From Escherichia phage vB_EcoP_SP5M, in sequence record NC_070869.1: a stretch of DNA of 64,000 nt, one strand, 5' to 3'. The number at the start of each line of letters is the position of its first letter. Positions within the stretch are counted from its first letter, which is position 1. Shown piece after piece: positions 2,902-36,086 of this stretch. The translations under genes and the position numbers were made by a program. The notes beneath the pieces are model-generated. The model was not told the DNA's origin. It saw nothing but the letters and a program-made list of their open reading frames with translations, and made no database searches.

Positions 2902-3118
2902 TGTAATTGTAGGTAATGAGATATTCATTGACCGAAAAGGTTATGCCCGAATTAAACTAAAGGGTAATAACAGAACTATTGTTCGTAAGGTGTACTCTAA
3001 ACCTTTTAGCAATTTCTCTATTGATGAAGTACGTATTAATAACAAGATGTACTTCATAGATAGTAAAGTATCTGTATGTCATACGGATGGTAAAACCTCT
3101 CTTGAATATACTTACTAA
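2885..3118 (+). CDS. Hypothetical protein (77 aa)
   Basis: ORF track; tight packing with neighbours. Confidence 0.4.
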   Translation: MNNLSDVIVGNEIFIDRKGYARIKLKGNNRTIVRKVYSKPFSNFSIDEVRINNKMYFIDSKVSVCHTDGKTSLEYTY

Positions 3119-3130
3119 GGAATAAACAAA

Positions 3131-3352
3131 ATGCTGTTCAGCACTAATTATGGTATTTGCCCAATTTGCAATAAAGGAAGAGGAGTTGCCAATCATAAGA
3201 AGTGTAGTCGTATTCTACAGAAACGACGGAACCAGAAAGAATGGGATAAGATATTAGAAAACCAACACAAAGATGAGTTCAAGAAGACGGCTGTTAAGGC
3301 ATCTACTCAGCTCATTCGTCGTACTAACTTCATAAAAGGTTATCAGAAATGA
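3131..3352 (+). CDS. Small basic Cys-containing (CPIC...C) protein
   Basis: ORF track; Cys pattern. Confidence 0.4.
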   Translation: MLFSTNYGICPICNKGRGVANHKKCSRILQKRRNQKEWDKILENQHKDEFKKTAVKASTQLIRRTNFIKGYQK

Positions 3353-3705
3353 AACTAATCGTGGCTGGTGGAAGAGACTTCGTTAATACCCAAGTAATGA
3401 TTACGGTATTAATGGATTTAGTGGAGAAGGGTAAGATTGACCCTAATCCTGAATTAGTATGTGGTATGGCTCGTGGTGCTGATATGCTTGCATACAGCCT
3501 ATGGGCTAACCACAATATGAAAATCCATACATTCCCGGCAGATTGGAAAACTCACCCAAGAAGTGCTGGATATATTCGAAATGCAGAAATGGGTAATTTT
3601 GCAGATGTACTTGTTGCCTTCTGGGATGGTAAATCCAGAGGAACCAAGCACATGATTGATATCATGCAAAGGCTAAATAAACCTGTATACATCGTGAGGT
3701 ACTAA
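3349..3705 (+). CDS. SLOG/DUF2493-like Rossmann-type protein (DprA/LOG-like)
   Basis: Motifs IVAGGRDF ... CGMARGADMLAYSLWA recalled as SLOG family pattern. Confidence 0.45.
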   Translation: MKLIVAGGRDFVNTQVMITVLMDLVEKGKIDPNPELVCGMARGADMLAYSLWANHNMKIHTFPADWKTHPRSAGYIRNAEMGNFADVLVAFWDGKSRGTKHMIDIMQRLNKPVYIVRY

Positions 3706-3963
3706 ATGATTATTACATATCCTACCTGTAGACCATTCAATTATATGGGGCAAACAATTGCAATACCCTTGTGGGTTAAATATGTTGCCCTGTTGCCACG
3801 TACATATACTAGTAATAACTCTTCCCTTATGGGTTTTGTAAGAAAGCCCAAACTAACTGCCGAAGGTACTTGGGTATCTAAAGGAAGGCAGGAAGAAATT
3901 GGTATCTGTAATTATGTACCTGAAGATAATAAGACCTATTTAACATTGGAGAAGGTGAAGTGA
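3706..3963 (+). CDS. Hypothetical protein (85 aa)
   Basis: ORF track only. Confidence 0.3.
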   Translation: MIITYPTCRPFNYMGQTIAIPLWVKYVALLPRTYTSNNSSLMGFVRKPKLTAEGTWVSKGRQEEIGICNYVPEDNKTYLTLEKVK

Positions 3964-4892: not shown

Positions 4893-5074
4893 ATAAACAG
4901 TGTAATTGTGGTAAAGGCTATGTATCCCAATGGGATAACAAGTGTGGTAAATGCCGAACCAAGAAAGAACAACGCGATCATGAGTATGCTCTTACTTATT
5001 TAGAAATGACACGTAACTATAACAATATGACCGCACATGATGCTTATATTTATAATAGAGAGGCTTGTAAATGA
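4874..5074 (+). CDS. Small zinc-ribbon-like protein (CNCG...CGKC)
   Basis: ORF track; Cys pairs. Confidence 0.4.
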   Translation: MEYFQMNKQCNCGKGYVSQWDNKCGKCRTKKEQRDHEYALTYLEMTRNYNNMTAHDAYIYNREACK

Positions 5075-23244: not shown

Positions 23245-23775
23245 ATGCCTCAGATTGGTTCAGCGACTATTGGTCAGGTTGCCAATAGCAGCGAGATAGT
23301 CAAGCACCTGTTCTTAGCAGAACTGGTTCGTCTTGATGGTGTGTTAAACGGCATCATTGATAAGAATGATCGTATCAATGGTGTAGACGTATCGGCTGGA
23401 TTCCTTCATCAAGGGGAGTTCTATCAGCGTTCTAATGCTACCAGACCCCCAACCTATGGTGAACGATTAACACTTAATCCAGAACTTTGGCCTGCAATGG
23501 ACAAGTATCTGAAAGCCTCCAGTCGTTTGATTATGGAAGTACACCTTGTGAATCAGACTGTATATCGACTGGTTCGCGGTTGTATGTCCTATCAGGATGT
23601 ACGTGATGCTCTACCTGAATGTCTGGTAGCACAAGACCAGACTGGTCAGTACAAAGGGCTACCACGTACTCGTGAAGCAGCTTGGGCTCTTGCTGGCGAT
23701 GCTATGGCAATCAAACAGTATGAGAAGATTCTTCCTTCTATTGAGTACTATGCAGCTTCTCATCTGATTTTCTAA
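23245..23775 (+). CDS. Hypothetical protein (176 aa)
   Basis: ORF track; GGAGGG upstream. Confidence 0.45.
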   Translation: MPQIGSATIGQVANSSEIVKHLFLAELVRLDGVLNGIIDKNDRINGVDVSAGFLHQGEFYQRSNATRPPTYGERLTLNPELWPAMDKYLKASSRLIMEVHLVNQTVYRLVRGCMSYQDVRDALPECLVAQDQTGQYKGLPRTREAAWALAGDAMAIKQYEKILPSIEYYAASHLIF

Positions 23776-23784
23776 GGTAAAGCT

Positions 23785-25749
23785 ATGCGTTACATCACCT
23801 CTCAGGATACTGGCAAGTATCCTATTGCTATCCTCGGTCATCAAATCCGAAGGGAGGAGATGATTAAAACCTACCTGCTGCCTTATGACCTAAGCATGGA
23901 AGATTTCATCTTCCTTGAACTACATTCTGCCCCTGGCAAGAAGAAAACTCCTGCAAGGGAGATTAAAGAGTTCATTCAGCAGGAACTACAGCAAGTACTG
24001 GATGATGCGGAGACTCAGTACATTATCTGTACCGATTCTGACTACTTCAAAATACTGACTAAAGAAGCTAAAGCAGAAGCTAACCTCGGCTATGTTTGTG
24101 ACTCAGTATGGGGTAAGCAGAAGGTTATTTATACGCCTAACTACAGACAGGTCTTTTATGATCCACCCGTAGTAAAAGCCAAAATTGCTCAGGGTATGGA
24201 TGCATTACTTAACCACATCCGTGGACAGTATGCTGAACCAGGTCAGGGAATCATTGAGTTTGAAGCCTATCCGGATACGCCCGAAAAGATTAAAGCCTGG
24301 TTAGACCAGTTGCTTGAGATGAATAAGCCTCTGGCTATAGACATCGAATCATTCGGTTTAAAGCACTATAACGCAGGTATAGGAACGATTACGTTCTGTT
24401 GGAGTAAGACACAAGGCATAGCTTTTAATGTGGACTACGAGCCAATTAAGGGGGCTACTGAAGCACCATATGGGCGTATTAACAGGAACGATGTTGTTCG
24501 TAACCTGTTACGTGAGTTCTTCATTAAGTACACTCAACGGCAGATGTATCACAACATTAGCTATGATGTTTATGTGCTTATCTATCAGTTATTCATGGAT
24601 AACCTGATTGATACGGAAGGCTTACTACATGGCGTGGAAATCATGCTACGTAACTGGGACTGTACTAAGTTAATCACCTATCTGGCTACTAACAGTTGTG
24701 CCGGTAATCACCTTAGTCTGAAAGACCAGGCTCAGGAGTATGCTGGTAACTATGCTCAGGATGATATTAAAGACATTCGTCTTATTCCTAATGAGCAACT
24801 GTTACGCTACAACCTCATTGATGGTTTGTGTACGTGGTACACCTACGAGAAGCACTGGGATACTCTCATTGCTGATGACCAACTGGATGTTTACAACAAC
24901 ATCTTTAAACCAGCCTGTGAAGACATTATTCAGATGCAGTTAACCGGTATGCCCATGAATATGGAAACCGTTAACCAAGTAGCTGAAGAGATGGAAACTG
25001 ACAGGAACCAGGCTTTGAAAACTATTCGTGAGTCTAAGCTCATGAAGAACTTCACCCTGATGCTTCGTCAGGAATGGGTAGATGATAAGAATGCTAAGCT
25101 CAAGAAGAAACAAGTAACGCTTGCTGATTGTGATATTGAGTTTAATCCTAACTCCGGTCCACAGTTACAGAAGCTGTTATTTGATTATATTGGCTTACCG
25201 GTTCTTGGTCTTACTAAGAGCAAGCAACCTGCTACTGACGGTGATACTATTAAAGCACTGCGTACACATACGCAGAGTGAAGATGTTAAGGAACTGCTCA
25301 ATGCACTTATCGACTATAAACTCGTGGATAAGATTATCACTAGTTTTATACCAGCTTTCAGGAATGCCCAACCGGGACCGGATGGCTGGCACTACCTGTT
25401 CGGAAACCTCAATCTGGGAGGCACAGTCTCCGGTAGGCTATCGGCTTCAGAGCCAAATCTACAAACAATTCCATCCGGTTCTAAATATGCCAAGAAGATT
25501 AAGAAATGCTTCGAAGCCCCTCCTGGCTGGATATTTTGCGGTTTGGACTTCGCCTCGCTGGAAGACAGAATATCTGCACTGACTACCAAAGACCCACAGA
25601 AGCTCAAAGTGTACATGGGGGTAATTGTGTATAGCGTTACTATCGATGGAGTTGACCATCATATCCGAGATGATGATACAATTGTTTATGATGGGAAAAC
25701 ATTTACCGGAGAGGAATTTTATAATGCCTATACCAATAGCCTACTTTGA
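23785..25749 (+). CDS. Family A DNA polymerase, N-terminal part (3'-5' exonuclease and polymerase motif A)
   Basis: Exo I DIESFGL, Exo II YHNISYDVYVL, Exo III-like YNLIDGL, motif A GLDFASLEDRI; ORF ends before motif B. Confidence 0.8.
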   Translation: MRYITSQDTGKYPIAILGHQIRREEMIKTYLLPYDLSMEDFIFLELHSAPGKKKTPAREIKEFIQQELQQVLDDAETQYIICTDSDYFKILTKEAKAEANLGYVCDSVWGKQKVIYTPNYRQVFYDPPVVKAKIAQGMDALLNHIRGQYAEPGQGIIEFEAYPDTPEKIKAWLDQLLEMNKPLAIDIESFGLKHYNAGIGTITFCWSKTQGIAFNVDYEPIKGATEAPYGRINRNDVVRNLLREFFIKYTQRQMYHNISYDVYVLIYQLFMDNLIDTEGLLHGVEIMLRNWDCTKLITYLATNSCAGNHLSLKDQAQEYAGNYAQDDIKDIRLIPNEQLLRYNLIDGLCTWYTYEKHWDTLIADDQLDVYNNIFKPACEDIIQMQLTGMPMNMETVNQVAEEMETDRNQALKTIRESKLMKNFTLMLRQEWVDDKNAKLKKKQVTLADCDIEFNPNSGPQLQKLLFDYIGLPVLGLTKSKQPATDGDTIKALRTHTQSEDVKELLNALIDYKLVDKIITSFIPAFRNAQPGPDGWHYLFGNLNLGGTVSGRLSASEPNLQTIPSGSKYAKKIKKCFEAPPGWIFCGLDFASLEDRISALTTKDPQKLKVYMGVIVYSVTIDGVDHHIRDDDTIVYDGKTFTGEEFYNAYTNSLL

Positions 25750-26266
25750 GAACCGTTATCTAATTTCAGAGGATGGTTCCATCACCAATCTTGCTAGCAA
25801 TTCCCCGCTTAAACCAACAGTAAATCCTAATGGGTATCTTAAGGTTGGTTTAGCGAAAGGGGATGGTACGCACCAACAGGAATTGGTTCATATTCTGGTA
25901 GCTAAACACTTTATTCCCAATCCATACGGATACAAGTATGTAAATCATCTGGATGGGAATAAACAGAATCCCCATAAGGATAATCTGAAATGGTGTACAG
26001 CATCCCAAAATTCAGAACACGCCCTGCGAACAGGATTACGTCCTGGATATATGTCTGCAAATGACAAGGAGAAGTACCTATTTGAAGTACTGGAAGGTAA
26101 GCAAGTAGGTGAACTCGCCCAAGAAATAGGCAGACGTGCAGAAACACTGCATAAAATGCTCAGAACCACTGCTGACAGACTCGGTATCCGTCATAAGTGG
26201 GATGAGGTTATGAGGAGGAACCGCAGAGATGTCGCAATTCGACAACTTGCCAAAATCAACTCATGA
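25724..26266 (+). CDS. HNH homing endonuclease (NUMOD4 + HNH_3-like) inserted within the DNA polymerase gene
   Basis: NGYLKVGL ... VHILVAKHFIPNP ... VNHLDGNKQNPHKDNLKWCT; own SD GGAGAGG. Confidence 0.75.
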   Translation: MPIPIAYFENRYLISEDGSITNLASNSPLKPTVNPNGYLKVGLAKGDGTHQQELVHILVAKHFIPNPYGYKYVNHLDGNKQNPHKDNLKWCTASQNSEHALRTGLRPGYMSANDKEKYLFEVLEGKQVGELAQEIGRRAETLHKMLRTTADRLGIRHKWDEVMRRNRRDVAIRQLAKINS

Positions 26267-27059
26267 TTTCACTGGCAAAAAGATTCAATCTGTAAAAAAG
26301 GTAGGTAGTTCAACGGGTTATGATGGGCATAGTCTTCGTGCGTATGCTTACTTCGGTGAGCAAATGCCAGACATTGTAGACACAGTTGAATCAATTAACT
26401 CTATTCAGGTGAAGTACAAGCACTTGCGTAGTGATTCTAAAGCCCCAACCTTCTTGCTTACCTATGGTGGCACGTATATGGGCTTGATGAAAAACTGTGG
26501 CTTCTCGGAAGAGAAAGCTAAGACAACAGAGAAACGTTATCACGAACTCTATGTAGTTAGCGATATGTGGGTTCAGGCTAAACTAGACGAAGCTGCCAAG
26601 ACTGGTTATGTAACTGCTGCATTTGGTTTGAGAGTGCGTACTCCTTTACTGGCTCAGGTATTACGTGGGACATGTAAGACTCCATATGAAGCAGAGGCTG
26701 AAGGTAGAACTGCTGGTAATGCCTTGGGGCAAAGCTGGTGTCTACTTAATAACCGTGCTGGCTCAGAATTTATGCGTAAGGTCAGAGCCAGTGAGTTCAG
26801 GTTAGATATACGTCCTAGTATTCACATTCATGATGCTCAGTACTTCATGATTCGTGACAACATGGATACTTTGCAGTACACGAACAAGCACTTGGTTGAA
26901 GCCGTTAACTGGCAGGACCATCCTGATATTGCTCATCCAGAAGTTGGTTTGGGTGGGGAACTATCATTGTTTTACCCAACGTGGGCTAACGAGATTGAGA
27001 TTCCAAATCACGCTACCCCAGAAGAAGTTAATCAAATAATTCAAAAGGCATTCGCATGA
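26229..27059 (+). CDS. Family A DNA polymerase, C-terminal part (motifs B and C)
   Basis: Motif B RSDSKAPTFLLTYGGTYMG, motif C IHIHDAQY. Confidence 0.8.
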   Translation: MSQFDNLPKSTHDFTGKKIQSVKKVGSSTGYDGHSLRAYAYFGEQMPDIVDTVESINSIQVKYKHLRSDSKAPTFLLTYGGTYMGLMKNCGFSEEKAKTTEKRYHELYVVSDMWVQAKLDEAAKTGYVTAAFGLRVRTPLLAQVLRGTCKTPYEAEAEGRTAGNALGQSWCLLNNRAGSEFMRKVRASEFRLDIRPSIHIHDAQYFMIRDNMDTLQYTNKHLVEAVNWQDHPDIAHPEVGLGGELSLFYPTWANEIEIPNHATPEEVNQIIQKAFA

Positions 27060-36009: not shown

Positions 36010-36086
36010 GTCCGCTTAGCTTAGACTGGGAAAGCAACCGACTAATAATCGGAAGGTCACTGGTTCAAATCCAGTAGTGGACACCA
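36010..36086 (+). tRNA. tRNA with apparent anticodon AAU (loop CTAATAA), CCA encoded
   Basis: Acceptor GTCCGCT/AGTGGAC; D-arm GCTT-AGACTGGGA-AAGC; anticodon stem ACCGA/TCGGA; T-arm ACTGG-TTCAAAT-CCAGT. Confidence 0.55.

Follow-up and report, generated by a model that had tools for sequence, protein, structure and literature searches.

We analysed the DNA polymerase gene of Escherichia phage vB_EcoP_SP5M (NC_070869.1), which occupies positions 23785-27059 of a 64,000-nt stretch (the window, meaning the whole stretch of DNA that was analysed). The window belongs to a G7C-like, N4-like podophage (genus Gamaleyavirus, Schitoviridae), and the gene encodes a family A DNA polymerase, the homologue of N4 gp39. 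The 23785-27059 region is 94.7% identical over its full length to phage PD205, and ~96% identical to G7C across 79% of its length. In the window, this region is read as three open reading frames (ORFs) in three different frames (23785..25749, 25625/25724..26266 and 26229..27059). A first-pass annotation, made from the letters alone, had placed the exonuclease motifs and motif A in the first ORF and motifs B and C in the last, in a different frame, with a NUMOD4/HNH endonuclease gene carrying its own Shine-Dalgarno (SD) sequence between them in the third frame; the motif positions and Pfam matches bear out this layout. The first ORF matches positions 11-179 of the Pfam DNA_pol_A profile (E 1.9e-23), while the last matches positions 201-303 (E 1.5e-9), and the family A motif set (Exo I-III, A, B and C) is complete, spread over two fragments. 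The features of the locus, all on the plus strand, are as follows:

23785..25749, plus strand: N-fragment of the DNA polymerase, 654 amino acids (aa), with the 3'-5' exonuclease motifs, motif A and a 44-aa cassette-derived tail
24334-24357, plus strand: Exo I
24550-24579, plus strand: Exo II
24808-24834, plus strand: Exo III
25540..25569, plus strand: polymerase motif A (GLDFASLEDR)
25615..26315, plus strand: mobile cassette, 701 nt, replacing ACCGAT (Thr-Asp) of G7C gp39, from alignment with G7C, PD205 and PhAPEC5/7
25615..25746, plus strand: tail, 44 aa (MGVIVYSVTIDGVDHHIRDDDTIVYDGKTFTGEEFYNAYTNSLL), in the polymerase frame, at the C-terminus of the N-fragment
25708..25714, plus strand: SD of the HNH gene, GGAGAGG, 9 nt 5' of its ATG, read from the sequence
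25724..26266, plus strand: HNH homing endonuclease gene, 180 aa, NUMOD4/HNH_3, I-HmuI-like
25747-25749, plus strand: stop codon of the N-fragment, TGA
26212..26218, plus strand: SD of the C-fragment, GAGGAGG, 10 nt 5' of the ATG at 26229 and inside the HNH coding sequence
26229..27059, plus strand: C-fragment of the DNA polymerase, 276 aa, with motifs B and C
26229..26315, plus strand: head, 29 aa (MSQFDNLPKSTHDFTGKKIQSVKKVGSST), at the N-terminus of the C-fragment, rejoining the polymerase at GYDGH
26427..26471, plus strand: polymerase motif B (RSDSKAPTFLLTYGG), uninterrupted in the window
26820..26846, plus strand: polymerase motif C (IHIHDAQYF)

The limits of the insertion were mapped against the uninterrupted G7C gp39, which is one ORF of 2580 nt: the window reads ..AAA GTG TAC [25615..26315] GGT TAT GAT GGG.. 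where G7C reads ..AAG GTG TAT ACC GAT GGC TAT GAT GGT... The target, which lies between motifs A and B, is the fingers-domain loop ..KVY-TD-GYDGH.. of the polymerase (in G7C gp39, ..AAGCTGAAGGTGTATACCGATGGCTATGATGG..). The cassette contains no non-coding bases, being made up of three overlapping ORFs: the tail (which includes the stretch ..VYSVTIDGVDHHIR..), the HNH gene and the head. The HNH gene shares 26 nt with the N-fragment and 38 nt with the C-fragment. We place the HNH start at ATG 25724 rather than at TTG 25625, because 5' of 25724 the ratio of nonsynonymous to synonymous change (pN/pS) is 1.34 in the endonuclease frame and 0.19 in the polymerase frame. The first-pass annotation had counted about 50 nt of the insertion outside the endonuclease ORF; with the limits and start given here, the figure is 161 nt, all of it coding for extensions of the polymerase fragments. 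Phage PD205, which was sequenced independently, has the identical three-frame layout, as do Pollock, Pylas, AlfredRasser and others; the agreement with PD205 indicates that the interruption is not a sequencing artefact.

The middle ORF encodes an intact endonuclease. Pfam reports HNH_3 above the cut-off (27.1 bits) and NUMOD4 just below it (22.8 bits, cut-off 23.4), and the protein is homologous to I-HmuI (PDB 1U3E; E 1.9e-11 across residues 6-104), the HNH nickase encoded by the intron in the DNA polymerase gene of SPO1; the alignment does not reach into the C-terminal halves of the two proteins. The residues of the HNH beta-beta-alpha-metal motif and the N-terminal DNA-binding region are present, and H56, N74, H75, N87, N96 and H99 are invariant in the alignment of the HNH family. 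The first-pass annotation had staked its reading on two points, a reproducible interruption and intact HNH catalytic residues, and both are found.

A rival reading is that the interruption has destroyed the gene, with the phage relying on another polymerase. However, pN/pS is 0.02-0.04 for the N-fragment (compared with PD205, G7C and PhAPEC5) and 0.04-0.06 for the C-fragment; between the window and PD205, both of them cassette-bearing Gamaleyaviruses, the values for the two halves are 0.038 and 0.045. This strong purifying selection, the intact catalytic motifs and the many cultured lytic phages that bear the cassette leave next to no credence for a broken, non-functional polymerase, in favour of which there is the interruption itself and nothing further.

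The coding constraint extends to the cassette. We calculated pN/pS in each frame from the window, Pollock, AlfredRasser and Pylas, whose cassettes have ~70-77% DNA identity to that of the window. For the tail, the ratio is 0.19 in its own frame and 0.79-1.34 in the other frames, and it is also 0.19 for the 36 tail codons outside the overlap with the HNH gene, as low as for the endonuclease itself (0.25 in its own frame, 1.08-1.68 in the others). For the head, the ratio is 0.50 in its own frame (16 non-overlapping codons) and 0.96-1.71 in the others. The substitution pattern indicates purifying selection on the tail as a protein, and a weaker constraint on the head. Similarly, the signals for separate translation are retained: the stop codon of the N-fragment and the SD and ATG of the C-fragment are kept in Gamaleyavirus, Enquatrovirus, Pollockvirus and Pylasvirus, and the GGAG and ATG of the C-fragment persist in Pollock, AlfredRasser and Pylas despite differences in the overlapping HNH codons. 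Indeed, in Pylas the C-fragment ATG is retained even though both overlapping endonuclease codons have changed. RNA folding revealed no convincing regulatory hairpin at the HNH start (z score +0.88) or at the C-fragment start (z score -1.67), and scans of 23500-27400 for sigma-70 promoters and terminators gave fewer sites than shuffled sequence and hence no support for transcription signals borne by the cassette.

These results bear directly on whether the insertion is a self-splicing intron, either of group I or of an atypical kind with a core that extends into coding sequence, in which case the tail and head would be by-products. HNH genes of the I-HmuI type are classically intron-encoded, and a true group I intron lies elsewhere in the same gene of PhAPEC5/7. 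The element has also been described in this way: the Pollock genome paper calls it 'intron-encoded' (PMC4319500), and in the records of AlfredRasser and Pylas the coding sequence (CDS) is given as joined. However, the Pollock paper (PMC4319500; see also PMC3670811) assumes an intron for the cassette without evidence of splicing, and we consider an intron unlikely on several grounds. An Rfam scan at E<=10 gave no match to RF00028 (Intron_gpI) in 25300-26600, in agreement with the earlier view that there is no classical group I core, and the positive controls were detected: the PhAPEC5 polymerase in the E-value scan (E 3.9e-7) and window positions 31341-32095 in the gathering scan (58.3 bits). 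The 161 nt outside the HNH CDS, none of them non-coding, are too little for a catalytic core, and their substitutions are those of protein-coding sequence in the polymerase frames, a constraint not needed in an intron that is spliced out. Nor would an intron account for the conserved SD and ATG of the C-fragment, and the folding of RNA at the junctions is not unusual. The first-pass annotation had left a choice between a polymerase made as two polypeptides and an unusual intron overlapping coding sequence; the coding constraint, the conserved stop codon and the conserved SD and ATG support the former and speak against the latter.

Group I introns do occur nearby, both in the window and in the polymerase genes of relatives. 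The RF00028 match at 31341-32095 (gathering score 50) lies in the gene after a primase-like ORF and contains a 163-aa ORF with no Pfam match; the ORFs in this region are 31018..31353, 31486..31977 and 32123..32566, and the part of the interrupted gene that follows the intron has a weak AAA_24 match. In PhAPEC5/7 (loci L003/L004 in our numbering), a group I intron with a different HNH ORF occupies 3193-3862, corresponding to window position 25454/25455, ~160 nt upstream of the cassette. An insertion at the PhAPEC5 site is also found in L009 (3190-4000) and L117. The metagenomic phage L009/L010 combines this insertion with a cassette at a second site (site 2, described below), leaving its polymerase in at least three pieces. 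A 231-aa Gamaleyavirus C-fragment (P0082), which resembled a site-2 case, was considered as a third cassette site and rejected, as it is instead an intron allele of the PhAPEC5 type whose start was called too late.

The cassette has spread laterally, and recently. PD205 matches the window at all but 3 positions of 25588-26317 (99.6% identity), whereas both flanks have diverged by ~6%, and thus the cassette, including the tail and head, is much younger than its flanks. Its presence is polymorphic: among Gamaleyavirus phage records, only PD205 carries it besides the window, and most Gamaleyaviruses are without it, while the same cassette, at ~77% nt identity, occupies this site (site 1) in the Enquatrovirus phages AlfredRasser, VEc25, PMBT57, the BEU phages and AL25, and also in Pollock and Pylas. 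Moreover, in metagenomic N4-like polymerases, a homologous NUMOD4-HNH gene is inserted ~25 codons further on, after ..GYDGH..MPDI.. and before ..INSI..YK..R..SK (site 2). There, as at site 1, a tail reaches into the start of the endonuclease gene, and the 3' end of that gene contains the start of a head. The tails of the two sites align without gaps (VYxVxIxGxxHHIRDDDTIxYDGKTYTGEEFY at site 1, CYKAxVGGTDxYFHxxEDVEYLGKxMxGKELY at site 2); the tail is conserved to ~36-40% identity across the two sites and always accompanies the HNH gene. One locus, L021, has at site 2 an endonuclease of the site-1 lineage (47-53% identity, compared to ~30% to the other site-2 enzymes) together with a site-1-like tail, from which it appears that the tail goes with the endonuclease lineage and not with the insertion site. 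The tail and head are part of the mobile element, conserved and portable, a feature of these extra coding ends that the first-pass annotation had missed.

Several individual loci carry further rearrangements. At site 2 of L102, an extra ORF (1716-2273) with a Tad2-like (Thoeris anti-defence 2) domain (Pfam E 6.8e-25) lies between the tail and the HNH gene, and so the site-2 cassette is able to carry cargo. In phage AL25 (L008, ~3000-3265), 127 bp at the 5' junction (..KLKVY and the greater part of the tail) are directly duplicated, which cuts the first tail short and yields a separate 44-aa ORF called 'DNA polymerase I'; the duplication is either an assembly artefact near the end of the record or a recombination footprint of the cassette. 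A 118-aa metagenomic protein from a Logan contig (P0001) has a tail 100% identical to that of the window and an N-terminus (MQDLLNKLVSIKNRVTLDDYDELIQLASKYGIQEQVSECFDYEEGW..) unrelated to the polymerase, joined at ..GWIFCGLDF.., which suggests that this phage has a further insertion just 5' of motif A. Finally, in G7C a free-standing HNH gene (gp41.1) separates gp41 from gp42 (L001, 4924-5421), while in the window the ORFs 27361..27831 and 27831..28811 abut at 27831 with no endonuclease between them. The homing-endonuclease content thus differs among close relatives at several loci.

We searched 1.84 billion representative proteins with the tail and obtained 32 matches. With five exceptions, these lie at the C-terminus or within ~6 residues of it, and many of the proteins are ~640-690 aa long, the length of the polymerase N-fragment. 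The exceptions are two proteins of 42 aa made up of the tail only and three partial matches in several stretches of long proteins, which we take to be unrelated. When a short query was used, the word-indexed protein search yielded short fragments only and therefore informs on the diversity of tails, not on full-length proteins. Related heads form a family in metagenomic C-fragments. None of the ~40 uninterrupted polymerases that were sampled has tail or head residues, all of them keeping a short loop, and no natural in-frame fusion of tail to head with loss of the HNH gene was found in protein searches including the 1.84 billion representatives. Pfam scans of the tail, the site-2 tail, the fused tail and head and a variant tail gave no meaningful match.

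In an AlphaFold2 model built from a 40-sequence alignment, the tail forms four strands and a short helix with a predicted local distance difference test score (pLDDT) of 85-89, above that of the rest of the construct. A Foldseek comparison of the N-fragment model with the PDB gave nothing below E=1, the tail mini-domain being too small and the rest of low confidence. The tail is acidic (net charge -6, isoelectric point (pI) 4.2; the site-1 family mean is -4.4) and the head is basic (net charge +3, pI 9.8; family range 0 to +5), and these opposite charges recur across the family.

Extensions at both ends of a split replication gene might also be the halves of a split intein, as in a 'fractured gene', in which case trans-splicing would ligate the polymerase fragments. 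The gene order (host half, free-standing endonuclease, host half) does match that described by Dassa et al. 2009 (PMC2677866), and Thr is often found at the +1 position after the head. The junction residues do not fit, in that the first residue of the tail varies (M, S, T, Q, A, V, L) with no Cys/Ser nucleophile, and the last residue of the head varies as well (N, R, K, S, Q, T) with no conserved His-Asn. Together, the tail and head amount to 44 + 29 aa = 73 aa, far below the size of the Hint fold (at least ~130 aa), and Pfam gives no Hint or intein match. We therefore regard a split intein as highly improbable. A loose resemblance of the tail to intein block A (..DT-I-V-x-DG-x4-EEF) was dismissed on the same grounds of variable junction residues and size.

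The reading that we favour, with reasonable though incomplete confidence, is that a free-standing HNH cassette splits the polymerase gene without any splicing, and that the two resulting proteins reassemble, probably with the tail and head as a clasp. The cassette is a compact unit of three cistrons inserted into an essential polymerase gene. The first continues the upstream polymerase ORF by 44 codons and closes it with a stop codon; the second is the endonuclease gene with its own SD; and the third begins from an SD and ATG buried in the endonuclease 3' end and adds 29 codons leading into the downstream polymerase ORF. A single unspliced middle-gene transcript would then yield three proteins, of which the 654-aa and 276-aa fragments would reassemble non-covalently, helped by the tail and head. 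Because the tail and head replace two adjacent residues, the start of the tail and the end of the head emerge side by side from the fingers domain, and an acidic folded tail and a basic head at adjacent points of the fold would probably clasp the halves together. The endonuclease presumably cuts or nicks cassette-free polymerase alleles during co-infection, perhaps with a specificity for the uninterrupted loop, and recombinational repair would copy the whole cassette, including the tail and head, which would act as 'antidote' ends.

Several observations weigh against this proposal, in addition to the published intron annotation. The head, modelled alone, is predicted to be disordered (pLDDT 36-51), and its constraint is weak, resting on a ratio of 0.50 over only 16 codons. 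The pairing of tail and head across chains is our inference, as the chains were modelled separately. Furthermore, in Aeromonas phage Aeh1, the heterodimer of the split protein NrdA-a/NrdA-b forms without its tails, which are needed instead for higher-order assembly (Crona et al. 2011, PMC3045599); by analogy, 'clasp' may be too simple a description. Some of these same points favour a different account, in which the two polypeptides assemble unaided, and the tail and head are neutral baggage, kept through their overlap with the translation signals of the endonuclease. Indeed, the HNH gene shares sequence with 8 codons at the end of the tail and with 12 at the start of the head. However, overlap does not explain the low pN/pS of the 36 tail codons that lie outside it, the confident prediction of the tail as a mini-domain, its conservation at two sites and constant association with the HNH gene, or the recurrence of opposite charges on the tail and head. 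For these reasons, we think it rather unlikely that the tail and head are baggage, and prefer the proposal that they help to reassemble the split polymerase.

The relatives with a site-2 cassette have an additional peculiarity. At every site-2 locus examined, and at one site-1 locus (L018), a short insert breaks the reading frame within motif B; the window has no such insert. The inserts are of two types. The first adds a C (..ACN TTT [C] GCA CTT ACC TAY CAG GG..; L018 ~960-985, L021 ~3130-3155, L102 ~2931-2954), while the second adds TAGCT (..TTT GCN CTN ACN [TAGCT] TAY CAR GG..; L009 ~5034-5052, L011 ~1130-1148, L099, L100, L107, L108, L109, L116) and brings in an in-frame UAG. Removal of the 1 or 5 nt restores ..PTFALTYQGT.., and the loci are otherwise strongly diverged. 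In 10 of 11 loci, a strong hairpin (-15 to -22 kcal/mol, z score -2.6 to -5.0) lies just 5' of the insert, ending one codon before the UAG in the TAGCT type. These hairpins have different sequences with compensatory changes in their stems, and no such hairpin is found in the uninterrupted alleles, including the window. Judging from these sequences, the inserts possibly direct programmed forward recoding, with a UUU-to-UUC +1 slip in the first type and a 5-nt hop over the UAG in the second. Alternatively, they may mark a third split or an immunity scar. If they are recoded, they would provide a new natural example of translational recoding linked to an endonuclease.

A broader generalization is possible, although we put it forward only tentatively: the tail and head could constitute a portable, endonuclease-linked 'split-gene adaptor', a small two-chain clasp domain that would allow the element to enter different loops of the polymerase (at least two sites are seen) with no need of an intron or intein, and that in the site-2 lineage would also be coupled to recoding (the +1 slip or 5-nt hop at motif B), paralleling T4 mobA/gene 60. 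On the reading that we favour, a mobile endonuclease brings with it peptide tails that would neutralise the damage of splitting an essential gene, and the occurrence of one conserved, foldable tail at two sites and across many phages makes it possible to test, through comparison and biochemistry, whether such an 'antidote' module is general. Suitable, easily grown coliphages are available (PD205, AlfredRasser/Bas69 and Pollock), and a naturally split, self-assembling family A polymerase could also interest protein engineers. In addition, our analysis corrects a common annotation, as the element has been published or deposited as 'intron-encoded' or as a joined CDS without evidence of splicing.

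Elsewhere in the window, two adjacent tRNA genes are found at 35928-36086. One is called as tRNA-Ile (anticodon AAT); ARAGORN left the anticodon loop of the other unassigned, and its Rfam tRNA score is 42.5 bits.

The locus shares features with several known systems. Like the window's enzyme, the HNH nicking endonucleases I-HmuI (its homologue) and I-HmuII are housed in phage DNA polymerase genes, in the group I introns of those of the Bacillus phages SPO1 and SP82, but I-HmuI lies within a self-splicing group I intron, while the window has no detectable intron core. The 'fractured genes' (Dassa et al. 2009, PMC2677866) resemble it in gene order, in their phage and metagenomic setting and in targeting replication enzymes, but their endonucleases are GIY-YIG and Vsr-like rather than HNH, and the ends in the window have neither an intein nucleophile nor a terminal Asn nor the size of a Hint domain. 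The split gp43 of T4-like Aeromonas phages (Petrov & Karam, cited in PMC2677866) is likewise a replicative polymerase encoded in two cistrons, in one case with an endonuclease gene between them. It differs in being a family B polymerase with a 2-3 kb intervening region and a GIY-YIG enzyme, and no conserved tail module is known to have been described for it.

In the T4 gene 39/mobA/gene 60 region, with its 50-nt translational bypass, an HNH gene also splits an essential gene, and our site-2 relatives share with gene 60 a short untranslatable insert just downstream, beside a stop codon and a 5' hairpin. The bypass insert is said to have been linked to immunity to MobA by Bonocora et al. in 2011. 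MobA is reported as a mobile element by Manning & Atkins (bioRxiv 10.1101/2022.08.31.505936). Compared to gene 60, the window itself has no insert, the inserts of its relatives are 1 or 5 nt rather than 50, and both the host gene and the phage family are different.

The closest parallel is the nrdA-a/mobE/nrdA-b locus of Aeromonas phage Aeh1, which was reportedly described as 'genes in pieces' by Friedrich et al. in 2007. The window's arrangement is most likely of this known Aeh1 NrdA/MobE kind rather than an intron: the ORFs are split, the endonuclease is intact, intron and intein elements are absent, both fragments bear tails and the element is mobile. In both systems, a free-standing HNH gene splits the gene of an essential enzyme into two cistrons (PMC3045599), and insertion-derived, oppositely charged tails are found on both fragments, with no RNA or protein splicing in Aeh1 and probably none in the window. 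Such tails were predicted to occur in other fragmented genes, as a more general and easily overlooked feature (Crona et al. 2011, PMC3045599), and the cassette described here would be a second, far better-sampled case of a solution that is biochemically established only for Aeh1 NrdA. The two differ in their host genes (the ribonucleotide reductase large subunit in Aeh1, a family A DNA polymerase in the window) and in the placement of charge, with an acidic tail and a basic head in the window and the reverse in Aeh1. Unlike in Aeh1, the three ORFs of the window overlap and leave no intergenic sequence. Finally, the Aeh1 tails are unique sequences, whereas the tail described here is a conserved foldable module that occurs at two sites and in several genera, and it is this conserved, portable tail module that is absent from the descriptions of Aeh1.

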